This document shows positions 5,927 through 34,446 of a stretch of DNA of 64,000 nt, piece after piece. The stretch is from Naegleria gruberi. Its lineage: Eukaryota. The notes under the pieces are model-generated. The model was not told the origin of the DNA, made no database searches, and saw nothing but the letters and a program-made list of their open reading frames with translations. The translations under genes and the position numbers were made by a program. Position 1 is the stretch's first letter. Every line of letters begins with the position of its first letter. The DNA lies in NCBI GenBank assembly GCA_000004985.1, contig GG738850.1; one strand, 5' to 3'.

Positions 5927-5997
5927 GGGGGCGAGGGGGAATCGAACCCCCGGCCACAGCTTTGGAGGCTGCGATGTTACCATTACACCACCGCCCC
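5927..5997 (-). tRNA. tRNA-Trp (anticodon CCA).
   Basis: Reverse complement 'GGGGCGG tg GTGT aatggta ACAT c GCAGC cuCCAaa GCTGT ggcc GGGGG ttcgatt CCCCC TCGCCCC c' folds as a cloverleaf. Acceptor stem 7 bp with one G-U. D-loop carries GG. Anticodon loop has U33 and CCA. T-loop is TTCGATT. Total 71 nt. Confidence 0.8.
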
Positions 5998-27888: not shown

Positions 27889-29271
27889 TTATTGAAAGTT
27901 TTCGTATTCTGAGCTGTCACTTTCACTTTCCTCCTCTTCTAGTTTGTCCAATGCCACAAAATAATGTTTCAATTCAGGTTCATTTCGTAACTCGTCTGAA
28001 GCATATTCAATTAGGAGAGGATGAATTCTAACAGCTTCTAATACGACCTCCTTATCAGATTGCAATCTATTCGAAACATATTCAAGTATTTCGTGTTTCT
28101 GCGATAACAACTCTAAAACGAATGGTTTGTCATCTTTCAATTCATCACATGCATATTTAAAGTTGCTACATTCAACTTTTACAATTTCTCTTATAATTTC
28201 CTTGTTAGAATTCAAACATTCTTTCAATCTCTCAGAAATATAGGAAAATATGTTGCATTTCTGTTCTAACAGCTCCAAAACGAATTCCTTATCAGATTTC
28301 AATTCATCAGCTGCATATTCAAATAGATATCCACACTTTTTAACTGATTTCTTAACAATATCCTTGTCAGATTTCAATCCATCTGACACGTATATGAATA
28401 TTGTTTGTTTCTGCTCTAACAGTTCCAAAACGAATGATTTATCATCCTTCAATTCATCACATGCATATGTAAAGTTGCAACTTTCAAGCTTAACAATTTT
28501 TCTTATAATTTCCTTGTTAGAATTCCAAGTTTTTTTCAATCTCTCAGAAATATAGGAAAATATGTTACGTTTCTGTTCTGTCAGCTCCAAAACAAATTGT
28601 TTGTCATCTTTCAATTCATCACTGGTATTTTCAAAGTTAACAAATCCAGCTTTTACAAATATCTTCTCGACTTCTAAAATGTCTTTGTGTGATCTCAGTT
28701 CTTGTGATCGATAATGGAGTAAAGACGGATCAGTGGTTTCTAATGGTAAATCACTTTCGAATTCTTTTGGAATAATCTCCACAAGTTTTATATTAAATCG
28801 AGGAGAGGAGATCAACTTTTGAAGGAGAGGTTCATAATTCCACAGCAAGAACACCTTTGCCATATTTAAAACCATATCAACCGAACACTTTTCCATCATT
28901 TTACAAAGAATTGAGAATGCAACCTCTCTATTAGCCATCAAAGTTGCATAATTCCAATTCAATTCACGATCAAGATAAGCTCTTCCACTAATCACGATCC
29001 TATCTGATGAATCAGATCTTGTACCGAAAGATTTGACATAGCTCATTGCCATGATCATGTCTTTTCTAGTGAGTCGTTTGGGGAATAATTTCTGTTGTAA
29101 TAAGATGGATTTGTAATTTTCATCTAGTAAGAGAATGAAAGTGGAAGGAGTTTTGGTATTTTGTACCAATGGAATGGTACTTGTGTTGTTGTTATTGTTG
29201 TGCATGAGAGTGGTTGTATTAGTAATATTGTTATTGTTGTTGTTTGAGATGAGAGTAGTTGAGTGTTTCAT
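27889..29271 (-). CDS. DUF4116-repeat protein with an N-terminal poly-Asn tract.
   Basis: 460 aa. At least 5 repeats of 'ELKDDK(E/S)FVLELLEQKxNIFxYxSxxLKxDKExV'. N-terminus 'LISNNNNNNITNTTT..HNNNNNTST'. A-rich start context. Confidence 0.6.
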   Translation of the reverse strand: MKHSTTLISNNNNNNITNTTTLMHNNNNNTSTIPLVQNTKTPSTFILLLDENYKSILLQQKLFPKRLTRKDMIMAMSYVKSFGTRSDSSDRIVISGRAYLDRELNWNYATLMANREVAFSILCKMMEKCSVDMVLNMAKVFLLWNYEPLLQKLISSPRFNIKLVEIIPKEFESDLPLETTDPSLLHYRSQELRSHKDILEVEKIFVKAGFVNFENTSDELKDDKQFVLELTEQKRNIFSYISERLKKTWNSNKEIIRKIVKLESCNFTYACDELKDDKSFVLELLEQKQTIFIYVSDGLKSDKDIVKKSVKKCGYLFEYAADELKSDKEFVLELLEQKCNIFSYISERLKECLNSNKEIIREIVKVECSNFKYACDELKDDKPFVLELLSQKHEILEYVSNRLQSDKEVVLEAVRIHPLLIEYASDELRNEPELKHYFVALDKLEEEESESDSSEYENFQ

Positions 29272-30070: not shown

Positions 30071-30434
30071 TCGCTTTTTTTTTCTTTGAATTTCGAATAA
30101 AACAATCAATGACCTTTTATTAAGTGCCCAATTGACTTGCCATAAGGAGTTTCACAGGAGGTATATTAGAATAACAATCACACAACTTTGTGACTGGGGT
30201 GCATTAACTTGGATTGTGTTTAGAACAAATTTCGAAACATTAACATTCCGCAATTTCAGCGCAGGTTACACATTGTTTGATGGACTAGAGATTTTCACCC
30301 TCATATCTTCCTCTATTCTTGAAAGCCATTAATTCCATACTGAAGAGAAAATAAAAATACACAATCCTAGTTTTAATTTCCGGGTTTACATGTAAACCTA
30401 TAAAAGCAAGTTTCAAAGTGGATCCAATTACAAA

Positions 30435-30506
30435 ATGTAACGGTAGTGTAGCGGTAACATTACAAACCTTTATTAACATGTCGAGGTATCGAATCTCGTT
30501 ACATTC
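30435..30506 (+). pseudogene. tRNA-like relic, probably a decayed tRNA gene or the tRNA-derived end of a mobile element.
   Basis: Perfect 7-bp terminal pairing ATGTAAC...GTTACAT. D-arm/A-box-like 'GTAGTGTAGCGGTAAC' and T-loop-like 'GGTATCGAATC'. The body is about 5 nt too short. No 5-bp anticodon stem, and the T-stem cannot pair. Confidence 0.3.
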
Positions 30507-30515
30507 AAAATTAAA

Positions 30516-32456
30516 ATGCCAACTTGTGTAACTTTTGTTTGTGTGTGTGGTAGTAAGTTAAATTCAAGACAAGCAAAATATAGGCATTTGAAGAAATGTT
30601 CTTATTTTGATAGAGCAAGACAATTTATTCGAATTACCATTCCCCAAACAACTCTATGTAAAATAATTGATCCACAAGTTTCGAATAATATTGCCACATT
30701 CGATTCTGATAAACCTGATCCACATGAAGCAGCATATATGAAGATGGGAAGAGCTGTTGTTGGTGTTATTAAAGACCTCCCAATTACCTCGCCTATCAGG
30801 AAGCCATTGATAGCCAAAATTTGCAAAACGGTTAGACCAAAGGATGCCAGAGAAATCTTGAATTTGGATGAATCAACAATCAGGAAAGCCAAGAAGAACA
30901 ATGATAATTCTATCCTCATGATGAAATGTAAGCCTAATTGTACAAGAGAGAAAATTACCAAGAAAGAAATTGATCAGATTCAAAGATTCTGGCTTGATTC
31001 GTGTCGTGTTTCATCTACAGAAGTTCTACAAACAACAAGAAAGAGAGGTGAAACACCTGCCATTACTGTTCCAAAATATTGGCAAGATCAACCTACATGT
31101 TGGATCTATAAACAATATGTTGATTATTGTGAGGAGAGAGTGTTGGTACAATTTTCAGTTGGTACGTTTGTCAAGTATAAGCCAAAGAATATTAGACCAT
31201 CCAAAAAGTTGGAAGGAGTATGTCCAATTTGTAAAGATTTCAATCAGAATGGCGAGAAGTACCAACAAGCTTCTGAATTATTACATCATGTAAGAATTAA
31301 TCCAGACTGTGAGTGTGAGAAGTGTCAACATTTTGCTAATTGCTCCAAGACAGAATTATTAGCACTTCAAAAGAAATATGATAAATACTTACTGCATGAT
31401 AAGCTGGTCAAAGATAAGGATCAATATTGGAAAAAGGTAAAGGCCGAACTAAAAGAAGATGAACTCATCGTTGTGATGGATTTTGCCAGTGGTTGGGAGG
31501 TTGTTGATAAAGCCGTAGAGACTACCAATGAATTCTTTGAAAAGTTTTACATCAAGGATATGATTGTAGTGGTAATCAGAAAATTGGGAGATGAATTCGA
31601 ATATTATTACATTGATATTCTAAATGACAATCATAATTCAGATCATCATTATGTAAGAGAATCATGGGAGTATTTGTTATCTAATGAGGAGATATTTGCT
31701 GGTAAATCAAAACTATTCCTGTTTTCAGATGGTGGCCCTGCTCATTACAAGACCTGTAAAACGGTTGTTATGGTTGGCGAAATGTCTCGTAAATTTGGTA
31801 TTCCTATTGAGTATAACTTCTTCCCATCACATCATGGAAAAGGACCTTGTGATGCACACACTGGAGTAGGTAAGAAGTTTATCAAAAACAAAGTACAAAG
31901 TAGACAAATTGAAGTGCAAACTCTTGATGATATTCAACAATTATTACAACAGCTCAAGAATACAAAAGTCATTCATCTGGAGGACATTGAAACATTTGAT
32001 GATTATAACGTGCAAAAGGTTGCTAATGTTAGATCATTCCATCAATATACTTACGAATTTGATTCTGAAGGTGAAATGGATCTGCTTTGCAAGATATCTT
32101 ATGAAGATGAGCATATAGAAGTCAAATCAGCAATATTGTTATCAAATTGTGGTGTGCAACTACAAGCAAATCATTGTCTATTCTGTAGAGAGGAGGGGCA
32201 TAATCACAGAGTGTGTGATTTGATGGCAGAAGAATATTTAAAAGAAGATTTTGATCCTTCTTATTACGATTTCCTCTCGCGAGAGAATGATTATCTTCCA
32301 GATAGAGAGGAGGACGAAGATGAAGAGGAATATTCATCCAGTGATGATGGTGAAGATGATACAGACAACGTTAGTGAAATTAGTATTGAAGTTGAACCTA
32401 CCAGAGAAAAAAGAAACAACCGTGGCAACAGATGTGCCTCATTTTCTATTAAATAA
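30516..32456 (+). CDS. Zinc-finger protein with a putative RNase-H-like (DDE/DDD) core and an acidic C-terminal tail. Candidate transposase or domesticated transposase.
   Basis: 646 aa. Zinc-finger-like motifs: N-terminal 'CVCGSKLNSRQAKYRHLKKC', central 'CPICKDF..HHVRINPDCECEKCQHF' (CxCxxCxH, SWIM-like), C-terminal 'CLFCREEGHNHRVC'. Candidate catalytic acidic residues sit in 'VVMDFASGWE', 'LFLFSDGGPAHYK' and 'FFPSHHGKGPCDAHTG'. The gene begins 9 bp after the tRNA-like relic and ends 146 bp before tRNA-Leu. Confidence 0.5.
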   Translation: MPTCVTFVCVCGSKLNSRQAKYRHLKKCSYFDRARQFIRITIPQTTLCKIIDPQVSNNIATFDSDKPDPHEAAYMKMGRAVVGVIKDLPITSPIRKPLIAKICKTVRPKDAREILNLDESTIRKAKKNNDNSILMMKCKPNCTREKITKKEIDQIQRFWLDSCRVSSTEVLQTTRKRGETPAITVPKYWQDQPTCWIYKQYVDYCEERVLVQFSVGTFVKYKPKNIRPSKKLEGVCPICKDFNQNGEKYQQASELLHHVRINPDCECEKCQHFANCSKTELLALQKKYDKYLLHDKLVKDKDQYWKKVKAELKEDELIVVMDFASGWEVVDKAVETTNEFFEKFYIKDMIVVVIRKLGDEFEYYYIDILNDNHNSDHHYVRESWEYLLSNEEIFAGKSKLFLFSDGGPAHYKTCKTVVMVGEMSRKFGIPIEYNFFPSHHGKGPCDAHTGVGKKFIKNKVQSRQIEVQTLDDIQQLLQQLKNTKVIHLEDIETFDDYNVQKVANVRSFHQYTYEFDSEGEMDLLCKISYEDEHIEVKSAILLSNCGVQLQANHCLFCREEGHNHRVCDLMAEEYLKEDFDPSYYDFLSRENDYLPDREEDEDEEEYSSSDDGEDDTDNVSEISIEVEPTREKRNNRGNRCASFSIK

Positions 32457-32602
32457 ACAATAAAACAGGATTGTTTATTTTTACTTTCTCGAAGTAATAT
32501 GATTTTGATTCATTTAATCTTACATTTAGCACTATGATTTATAGTGTTAATGCTGATGCAGAACCTGTTCAAAATTGTAATTTAAATAATTTGAATGTGA
32601 AG

Positions 32603-32682
32603 TAGGGGTTCCCGAGTGGTCAAAGGGGGTAGACTCAAGTTCTACTGCGCAAGCTTCGTGGGTTCAAATCCCACCTTCTGCA
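32603..32682 (+). tRNA. tRNA-Leu (anticodon CAA), class II with long variable arm.
   Basis: 'GTAGGGG tt CCC GAGTGGTCAAAG GGG GTAGA CTCAAGT TCTAC tgcgcaagcttc GTGGG TTCAAAT CCCAC CTTCTGC a'. Closely parallels eukaryotic tRNA-Leu(CAA) ('GCCGAGTGGTCTAAGG...GACTCAAGTTCTGG...GTGGGTTCGAATCCCAC'). Acceptor stem has three G-U pairs. Confidence 0.8.
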
Positions 32683-33275: not shown

Positions 33276-34446
33276 ATGATGATAATTAGCTGTTCATGTA
33301 ATTTGATTATTGACAGGAATCCGATAATCACTCCTGGAATGCCAAAAGTTTTGGCAGATAGATTACGATATCTAGAATCCATTAAAAAAGCCAAAGGTAT
33401 TAAAATTGCTAATGGATCAAAAGCAGCAACTAACGAATTTCCATTTATGGTATCTCTTCAGTATCAAGCAAGTAGTTCGAGCGTTCCTTATCATTTCTGT
33501 GGTGGATCAATTATTAATAAGCGATATATCATGACAGCAGGTAAGTTTTGATATGACTTTTGACATTTTTAACATTGTGAACTAGCTCACTGCATGTTCG
33601 ATGACACTAATGTAAAATTGACACCTTCTACCATTGTGGTTCTTGCAGGAGTCAACTATAACACCATTTCTACATCAAGTTTATCTGGAAATTACGCAAA
33701 AGGCAGCTCAATTACAGTTCATACAAGTTTCAGCTCGAAAACACTTGCAAATGACATTGCAATTATTTATTTAGATAGAGATTTGACAATTGATGGAACA
33801 ACTACACGTCTGGCTTACATTGAATCAGGTTCAGTTCCAATCCCAACTGCATCCTCAAAGATTCTCGTAGCTGGTTGGGGTTACACTGACTCAACTGAGG
33901 TTGCTTCTGAAAATTTGTTAAAAGTTAATATTCCAATTGTTTCTGATACGATCTGTAATTCATATCCATTGAGTTTGGATATGGCTAAACCAAGACAAAT
34001 ATGTGCTGGTGATGGTGCTGGTCACGATTCTTGTAAGTTGTTGATTTTTACAAAATTTAATTGTAAAATATTTTGAATTTATTACAATTATTGGAAATTG
34101 TTGGAAAATAGGTAGTGGTGATTCAGGAGGTCCATTGTTTAGAGTAGTCAATTCAAACACCAAGGACTTTGCAGTTGTTGGATTGGTAAGCTACGGACCT
34201 GATGGTTGTGGAACTGGATACGAAACTAACAGAGGTGTCTATACGAATACTACCTATTATTTGAATTCGTTTATTAGAAGTGTTGTTTCATCGGTTCAAA
34301 CTGATACCTACAATTCAAATTCAAGCTATGTCTATACCGGAACAAGTGGTGGTTCAACCAAATCTGATGCAAGTTTAGGATTTGATTTGAAGAGTTTCGT
34401 ATTTATTGTTGTAATGTGTTTGGGAATGATCTTTTATGCCTTGTAA
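33276..34446 (+). CDS. Trypsin-like (S1/chymotrypsin-family) serine protease with C-terminal hydrophobic anchor (GPI/TM). Three exons: join(33276..33540, 33586..34032, 34112..34446). The 5' start is uncertain.
   Basis: Mature N-terminus 'IANGSKAATNEFPFMVSL'. Catalytic His in 'TAAHC' (split by the 45-nt intron 33541-33585). Asp in 'DIAIIYL'. Ser in 'GDSGGP' (after the 79-nt intron 34033-34111). Both introns are GTAAGT...AG and phase-consistent. C-terminus 'FVFIVVMCLGMIFYAL'. An additional upstream exon is possible (acceptor 'ttgacag' at about 33320). Confidence 0.8.

Follow-up and report, generated by a model that had tools for sequence, protein, structure and literature searches.

A probable Sola2-group DNA transposon in Naegleria gruberi, with terminal inverted repeats, target-site duplications, and related copies in Willaertia magna

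INTRODUCTION

The Sola2 group, within the Sola superfamily of DNA transposons, includes Sola2-1_HM of Hydra and the DFa and PPa elements of dictyostelids. Zator elements, which are related to TP36 and IS630, are associated with 3-bp target-site duplications. For Sola2 elements, short inverted repeats and 4-bp duplications have been reported (PMC3627910). Dada elements, some families of which are found at tRNA-Leu genes, have no terminal inverted repeats (TIRs) and generate 6- to 7-bp duplications inside an RNA gene; their catalytic residues follow a D-68-D-176-E spacing with a DxxH motif (D567, D635, and E811 in Dada-U6_DR) (Kojima and Jurka 2013, PMC3706591). For transposon superfamilies without a Pfam model, core sequences have also been provided (Majorek et al. 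2014, PMC3985635). Here, we analyzed a stretch of 64,000 nucleotides from Naegleria gruberi (contig GG738850.1, assembly GCA_000004985.1), referred to as the window, and report that a segment of about 2.15 kb within it (30345/6 to 32490) very likely represents a single insertion of a Sola2-group DNA transposon of the autonomous, cut-and-paste type. The element is a new member of this known group, in a host lineage and a divergent sub-branch without database models.

The element contains a single, intronless gene, the protein product of which is 100% identical to N. gruberi NAEGRDRAFT_78435, a protein annotated as hypothetical. An earlier note on this DNA had described a 646-amino-acid (aa) open reading frame (ORF) with zinc-finger-like and RNase-H-like features, placed between a decayed tRNA-like sequence and an intact tRNA-Leu gene, and had proposed either a mobile element that targets tRNA genes or a domesticated transposase. 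The placement of the ORF was confirmed: it starts 9 bp after the tRNA-like stretch (30435-30506), and 145 nt separate its stop codon from the start of tRNA-Leu(CAA).

RESULTS AND DISCUSSION

Family assignment by homology and profile comparison

Against Pfam, the ORF matched no family at E ≤ 10 save for a chance match to Nop53. Scans of the ORF and its relatives against Pfam, PDB sequences, and NCBIfam returned no named transposase family, with weak matches to IS630, helix-turn-helix (HTH), and DUF7869 models only. A phmmer search of the full library (1.84 billion representatives; cut-off of E ≤ 1e-3) recovered 1,226 homologs, of which 171 had E ≤ 1e-10. These homologs came from diverse eukaryotes, including the transcriptomes of Pompholyxophrys, Lithocolla, and Phalansterium. 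Across the family, three blocks occurred at fixed spacing, namely hhxDF(A/S), about 85 aa on (F/W)(S/T)DG..(H/Q)(F/Y)K, and 37 aa on HGK(G/S).CD(A/G).

An animal-type version of the same three blocks (GDFAENY, FTDGCAGQYKNC, and NFFATSHG) is present in the core of Sola2-1_HM, which, like the other Sola reference cores, was taken from supplement 5 of Majorek et al. (PMC3985635). The family profile aligned to the Sola2-1_HM core with an hhalign value of 99.8% (E = 1.5e-27; 125 columns; query positions 315 to 441) and to the Sola2 core of the sea urchin S. purpuratus at 98.1%; the corresponding values were 41% for Sola1 and 7% for Sola3. A profile made of 47 protist-type members alone matched Sola2-1_HM at 98.4% (E = 4e-15). 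In BLASTP comparisons with the same core, family members P0084 and P0106 were 52-54% identical (E of about 1e-47), animal-type homologs ranged from 46 to 54% identity, and the N. gruberi ORF had 39.6% identity over 48 aa (E = 1.5e-11).

With Sola2, the protein shares the DDD triad and the overall motif pattern, (S/T)DG..(Q/H)(Y/F)K and HGK, with DFAENY as the first motif in the animal type and MDFA here. It differs in having SDGGPxH(F/Y)K and HGKGxCD(A/G)H, typical of a divergent protist-type branch, where animal-type Sola2 has SDGxxxQYKN and HGKGPCDG. The protist-type branch (SDGGPxHFK, HGKGxCDAH), for which Pfam has no model, is documented here, and its description may be of use in annotating the repeats and genes of Heterolobosea and other protists.

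Other transposase families were considered by the same means. No Pfam match to KDZ/Zisupton, MULE/SWIM, or hAT, all of which the earlier note had listed as candidates, or to PIF, CACTA, or piggyBac, was found in the ORF or among 95 homologs. Dada, a further candidate of that note, also fell away, since the three Dada cores (Dataset S1 of Kojima and Jurka 2013) gave an hhalign value of 1.1%, versus 99.8% for Sola2. Weak matches to IS630 were seen in 3 of the 95 homologs.

A Zator identity, which a 3-bp reading of the duplication (see below) and the SDGGP motif had suggested, was ruled out by hhalign profile comparison. Zator has an SDGGP-type motif at its second Asp, as the present family does (Majorek supplement, PMC3985635), and the duplication here is possibly 3 bp; however, the first motif is QDDK in Zator and MDFA here, the value for Zator-1_HM was 0.4%, and the Amphimedon Zator gave a 20-column local match to SDGGP alone. 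PF07592 (Zator/TP36) matched 0 of 95 members at E ≤ 0.01.

Two of the 95 homologs weakly matched DUF7869 (E = 6.5e-4), an uncharacterised Pfam family that may represent a Sola-related transposase core. A full-text literature search with the motif strings and DUF7869 returned no match.

Catalytic triad, predicted fold, and accessory motifs

Conservation of the triad was counted in an alignment of 112 family members. Three Asp residues were invariant: D322 in 111 of 111 aligned sequences, and D405 and D446 in 110 of 110 each. H294 was invariant as well, and F323, H440, and G441 were nearly so. An AlphaFold2 (AF2) model built from this alignment had a mean predicted local distance difference test (pLDDT) score of 80.8, with values above 90 in the core, and displayed an RNase H-like topology (β1-β2-β3-α1-β4-α2-β5-α3) from which an insertion domain was absent. 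In the model, D322 lies on β1, D405 at the end of β4, and D446 at the start of the helix that follows β5. The topology and the placement of the triad bear out the earlier call of an RNase-H-like transposase, as well as the three acidic residues then singled out as catalytic candidates, which are these same invariant Asp residues at RNase H-like catalytic positions.

The solved structures closest to the model were the Mos1 mariner transposase and retroviral integrases, with SETMAR, Hermes, and Sleeping Beauty also named in the fold comparison. Structural similarity extends to the Tc1/mariner group (Mos1, SETMAR, and Sleeping Beauty) and to retroviral integrases, but at the sequence level neither PDB sequences nor the Pfam models DDE_1, DDE_3, and Transposase_1 were matched. 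The motif signature is also unlike that of Tc1/mariner, and the duplication is NAA(G) here rather than TA.

All protein motifs quoted in the earlier note were located in the ORF (MDFASGWE at aa 321, FSDGGPAHYK at 403, GPCDAHTG at 443, CECEKCQH at 265, and CLFCREEGHNHRVC at 554), and the acidic tail it described is present at the C terminus, where AF2 predicts disorder (pLDDT 31-40). Its zinc-finger-like motifs are likewise there, except that the central CxCxxCxH had no Pfam match and is not a SWIM domain in the Pfam sense; C267 and C270 of this motif are conserved within the protist-type subgroup. The N-terminal Cys/His motif and the C-terminal CX2CX4HX4C knuckle, which is of the retroviral type, are restricted to a few close relatives and set these proteins apart from Sola2; the knuckle is kept in P0002 (the N. 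gruberi paralog), P0154, and P0005 and is not family-wide. Upstream of the core, the family profile weakly matched sigma-28 region 4 and NarL/FixJ HTH domains (E of 0.012-0.4) in the predicted HTH-like region, and HTH_23 matched two family members.

Element ends and target-site duplications

The earlier note had proposed a search for TIRs and a target-site duplication, and both were found (25/29 and GAA(G), respectively; Table 1). Neither the simulations (300 flank pairs) nor the controls drawn from the window at equal spacing (257 pairs) produced a score as high as that of the 29-bp inverted repeat. The left end of the element is identical at 22 of 24 positions to a 24-nt sequence, GAGAAAAYAAAAATAMACAATCCT, that is itself identical at all four ends of two copies in Willaertia magna (loci L006 and L020, described below). 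On the right, the conserved subterminal stretch, from about 32437 on, includes the final codons of the ORF.

Table 1 Features of the element and its immediate surroundings in the window, with insertion sites of the three copies (slashes mark the junctions)
Feature	Coordinates	Strand	Basis or remark
Left target-site duplication GAAG	30342..30345	.	Minimal form GAA 30343-30345, G30345 being the first inverted-repeat base; repeated at right end
Left terminal inverted repeat GAGAAAATAAAAATACACAATCCTAGTTT	30345..30373	+	25/29 complementary to 32462-32490
Subterminal 16-bp perfect palindrome GGTTTACATGTAAACC, after TTTCCG	30383..30398	.	Identical in both W. magna copies
tRNA-like stretch in 5' subterminal region/leader of element	30437..30503	+	RF00005 14.9 bits, sub-threshold
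Intronless ORF, 646-aa Sola2-type DDD transposase, NAEGRDRAFT_78435	30516..32456	+	Homologs and hhalign to Sola2-1_HM core
Predicted helical HTH-like DNA-binding region, about aa 69-134	30720..30917	+	AF2 helices, pLDDT of about 90; putative
RNase H-like catalytic core, aa 315-461, with D322 (31479-31481), D405, D446	31458..31898	+	D-83-D-41-D, without insertion domain
C-terminal CX2CX4HX4C zinc-knuckle motif, aa 554-567, then acidic disordered tail	32175..32216	+	Read from sequence; pLDDT low
Right terminal inverted repeat, + strand sequence AAAACAGGATTGTTTATTTTTACTTTCTC	32462..32490	-	Pairs with left repeat
Right target-site duplication GAAG (or GAA 32491-32493)	32491..32494	.	Repeats left copy
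Intact host tRNA-Leu(CAA), outside element	32602..32682	+	ARAGORN; Rfam 44 bits
Insertion site, window			ACT GAA/GAG...CTC/GAA GTA
Insertion site, L006			GCT TAA/GAG...CTC/TAA GTA
Insertion site, L020			AAC TAA/GAG...CTC/TAA GTG

Direct repeats flank all three insertions. They measure 3 bp in each, or 4 bp when the adjoining G is included (GAAG, TAAG, and TAAG); by base composition, a 3-bp match at one site has a chance of about 0.02. The base that would be the fourth of the duplication is also the one with which the symmetric inverted repeat opens, so 3 bp (NAA) is equally compatible with the data. Because Sola2 elements are reported with 4-bp duplications (PMC3627910), the 4-bp reading fits, at the cost of ends that are offset by one base. 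A 5-bp reading failed in two of the three copies. In its short TIRs and in a flanking repeat that can be read as 4 bp, the element resembles Sola2; it differs in its small size (2.1 kb), in its intronless gene, in a duplication of NAA(G) instead of the AWWT type made up of A/T alone, and in its host lineage, Heterolobosea.

The subterminal palindrome recurs in W. magna at 9665-9680 of L006 and 9871-9886 of L020. At the matching position of L003, a distant environmental relative, a different hairpin, GGCAAAgtgaaTTTGCC, follows TCTCCG (about 435-452). That the structure is kept while its sequence changes suggests a putative functional hairpin or palindromic binding site.

Related copies and mobility

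Profile searching recovered the W. magna protein ABK040_005658, encoded at L006 (JBEGDK010000149.1). There, a copy of the element is spread over three reading frames by frameshifts, and its first 70 or so codons have decayed. Its left end and adjacent palindrome (GAGAAAACAAAAATAAACAATCCTAGTTTAAATTTCCGGGTTTACATGTAAACC) and its right end (...CCTCATTTTCTATTAA.TAAAC...AAAACAGGATTGTTTATTTTTGTTTTCTC) are strikingly like those of the window, despite just 57% identity between the proteins. At L020, the other locus in W. magna, there is a 1,066-bp copy with the same ends from which codons of about 140 to 550 are missing; it is an internal-deletion derivative. The ends of L006 and L020 are identical over the 24-nt TIR pattern tested and, by eye, perfect over 25 bp, and the two copies lie at unrelated positions, each with a TAA(G) duplication. 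The same ends and duplications at unrelated W. magna loci, one of them a deletion derivative, show that the element is mobile.

L003 (36% aa identity) also has an inverted-repeat bracket, the left arm of which occupies the homologous position; the score of this bracket was reached in 2 of 150 simulations. Three further homolog contigs (L001, L002, and L004) had no tRNA and no significant inverted repeat within 600 bp of the ORF, and are for the latter reason uninformative on the ends. A scan of metagenome contigs with one end-sequence pattern gave no matches. The other end pattern gave eight, which were attributed to chance as they had neither protein homology nor a continuation of the repeat.

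The W. magna gene model ABK040_005658 (1,135 aa; L006 10001-14079) appears to be chimeric: the frameshifted Sola2 remnant is joined to a separate downstream DUF4116 repeat gene, and the predicted "introns" bypass the frameshifts and the right end of the transposon. Among environmental sequences, a frameshift splits the transposase into two called genes in L003 (562-2602; ENA ERZ27237420 k141_583439) and in L015/L016. The split pairs are P0004 with P0010, and P0007 with an upstream ORF; they are decayed copies or assembly errors.

Transposition model and the question of domestication

With this assignment, a gene annotated only as a hypothetical protein gains a name and a proposed mechanism, and the ends and target duplication of its element are defined. 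The transposase would bind the 25- to 29-bp TIRs (GAGAAAA...TTTTCTC) and subterminal motifs, with the N-terminal Cys/His motif and the HTH-like region presumed to contact the element's own ends. In the compact RNase H-like core, D322, D405, and D446 would coordinate the metal ions needed for cutting and rejoining DNA; the C-terminal zinc knuckle and acidic tail are the last of the predicted transposase parts. The element would be excised and then reinserted at NAA(G) sites, giving rise to the 3- to 4-bp duplication. The DNA binding by the HTH-like region and the chemistry of the transposase are inferred, and the window copy may or may not be active today.

The identification as a Sola2-group transposon draws on the homology, the fold, the invariant triad, the inverted repeats, the duplications, and several insertions that include a deletion derivative. 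Some observations weigh against it. The inverted repeats of the window copy have four mismatches (25/29), the Sola2 references used are 130-aa cores only and not Repbase consensus elements, and the 64-kb window holds a single copy, the end sequence of which recurs nowhere else in it. The duplication, too, can be read in two ways: at 3 bp the ends are symmetric (GAG...CTC), and at 4 bp they are offset by one base. A strict 3-bp duplication would depart from the 4 bp reported for Sola2. Imperfect inverted repeats would also fit a Sola2 transposase gene that the host has recruited for a cellular function and that no longer moves. Such domestication would agree with an ORF of 646 aa that is intact in the window while both W. 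magna copies are degenerate, with just two annotated N. gruberi paralogs (64% identity), and with the expression of homologs in several protist transcriptomes. However, transcripts of a transposase are also expected from active elements, no ortholog from other Naegleria species was returned in the homolog searches, and the window and W. magna loci are not syntenic. The catalytic triad is intact, and because the transposon ends and the duplication are still in place and recognisable, we consider a domesticated transposase very unlikely and favor a Sola2-group transposon insertion.

The tRNA-like 5' segment

The segment between the left TIR and the ATG was read in the earlier note as the relic of a tRNA gene that, together with tRNA-Leu, brackets the ORF. 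Its 7-bp acceptor-like pairing and D-arm do exist, but the inference of a disrupted tRNA gene did not stand: the segment scores 14.9 bits against RF00005, for which the gathering score is 29 (E = 1 in a 141-nt search), and it lies inside the element, so that there is no bracketing by a relic. About 0.1 matches at 14.9 bits are expected by chance per 64-kb window (scaled from the 141-nt search, for the tRNA family alone). ARAGORN left the segment uncalled at thresholds of 100-80% and called it only at 70%, with 264 calls in the window.

Homologous segments occupy the equivalent regions of L020 and L003, with which the window shares TGTAAC/GTAACGG-type repeats and the string ..TCGAATCT.. near the ATG. 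Neither of these versions gave a tRNA match, and the L006 copy contains little of the segment. RNAalifold found no conserved cloverleaf among the homologous segments (consensus of −4.5 kcal/mol). On this evidence, the 70 nt would belong to a conserved 5' subterminal region or leader of the element itself, in which GTAAC/GTTAC repeats, seen by eye, mimic an acceptor stem in the window copy. Repeated subterminal motifs are typical of transposase-binding sites.

The D-arm of the segment resembles that of N. gruberi tRNA-Trp, with a score reached by none of 500 shuffles. The second tRNA gene of the window, tRNA-Trp(CCA) at 5927-5997 (− strand), has the D-arm CGGTGGTGTAATGGTAACAT, to be compared with CGGTAGTGTAGCGGTAACAT in the segment; of five tRNAs compared, it matched this D-arm-like part most closely. 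An origin from tRNA-Val was unsupported (alignment to W. magna tRNA-Val, p = 0.28).

Proximity to tRNA-Leu and possible roles of the segment

The right TIR ends 111 bp from tRNA-Leu(CAA), and since the window has only two tRNA genes in 64 kb, such proximity would be uncommon by chance. This spacing, and the weakly tRNA-like 70 nt on the other side of the ORF, might be explained by an element that targets tRNA genes, either Dada-like or with the positional preference of TRE and Ty3 elements, the 70 nt being a displaced fragment of the target. We regard this proposal of the earlier note as extremely improbable. The tRNA-Leu gene is intact and outside the element, the supposed fragment lies within the inverted repeats, and the other copies, which the earlier note had proposed to check for adjacent tRNA genes, are located away from them: L006 has no tRNA in 24 kb (none within 10 kb), the tRNAs nearest to L020 are more than 6 kb away, and L003 has none on its contig. 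Dada transposases are, like the present one, RNase H-like DDE/D enzymes with N- and C-terminal zinc-finger-like motifs, but they show no profile similarity to it (1.1%), and the D-83-D-41-D spacing, clear inverted repeats, 3- to 4-bp duplication, and undisrupted tRNA-Leu found here are all unlike Dada. As only one of three or four insertions is near a tRNA gene, the proximity is read as a coincidence in a compact genome, and tRNA-Leu would be an unrelated host gene that shares a short intergenic region with the element.

A role for the segment itself is also conceivable, in which it is a functional tRNA-derived module with A- and B-box-like sites for TFIIIC or Pol III, acting as a promoter, an insulator, or an aid to targeting. 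By eye, A-box-like strings (TAGTGTAGCGG, TAGCGTAACGG, and TAGCGCAATTA) and the B-box-like string already mentioned are similarly spaced ahead of the ATG in the window, L020, and L003; the likeness to the D-arm of tRNA-Trp and a fold z-score of −2.6 point the same way. Against this stand the sub-threshold score and its chance expectation, the lack of tRNA matches in L020 and L003, the lack of a conserved cloverleaf, the near absence of the segment from L006, and an acceptor-like pairing that the GTAAC/GTTAC subterminal repeats can explain, so that a functional module seems unlikely. It is quite unlikely that a Sola2 sub-lineage comprising the N. gruberi, W. magna, and environmental elements carries such a tRNA-derived 5' module, with its A- and B-box-like sites, as a conserved feature. 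If it did, the module could recruit TFIIIC/Pol III as a promoter, as a chromatin insulator, or as a tether near Pol III genes, and tethering of this kind would give meaning to the adjacency of tRNA-Leu. A new biological question would arise only if the conserved tRNA-like or A/B-box-like 5' segment proves functional; a conserved subterminal region or leader of the Sola2-group element is the reading that we prefer.

Neighboring genes

Within about 1 kb of the element, the window contains a gene for a DUF4116 repeat protein (27889-29271, − strand; Pfam 1e-54), and in W. magna a DUF4116 gene (L006 12331-14079, + strand) lies within about 0.5 kb of the copy. If these amoebae have a large and expanded DUF4116 family, the adjacency at both loci may be due to chance. 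Just downstream of tRNA-Leu, at 33276-34446 (+ strand), parts of a trypsin-like serine protease are encoded by three consecutive ORFs, the middle one of which matches Pfam Trypsin at 4e-15; together they look like one gene broken by short introns.

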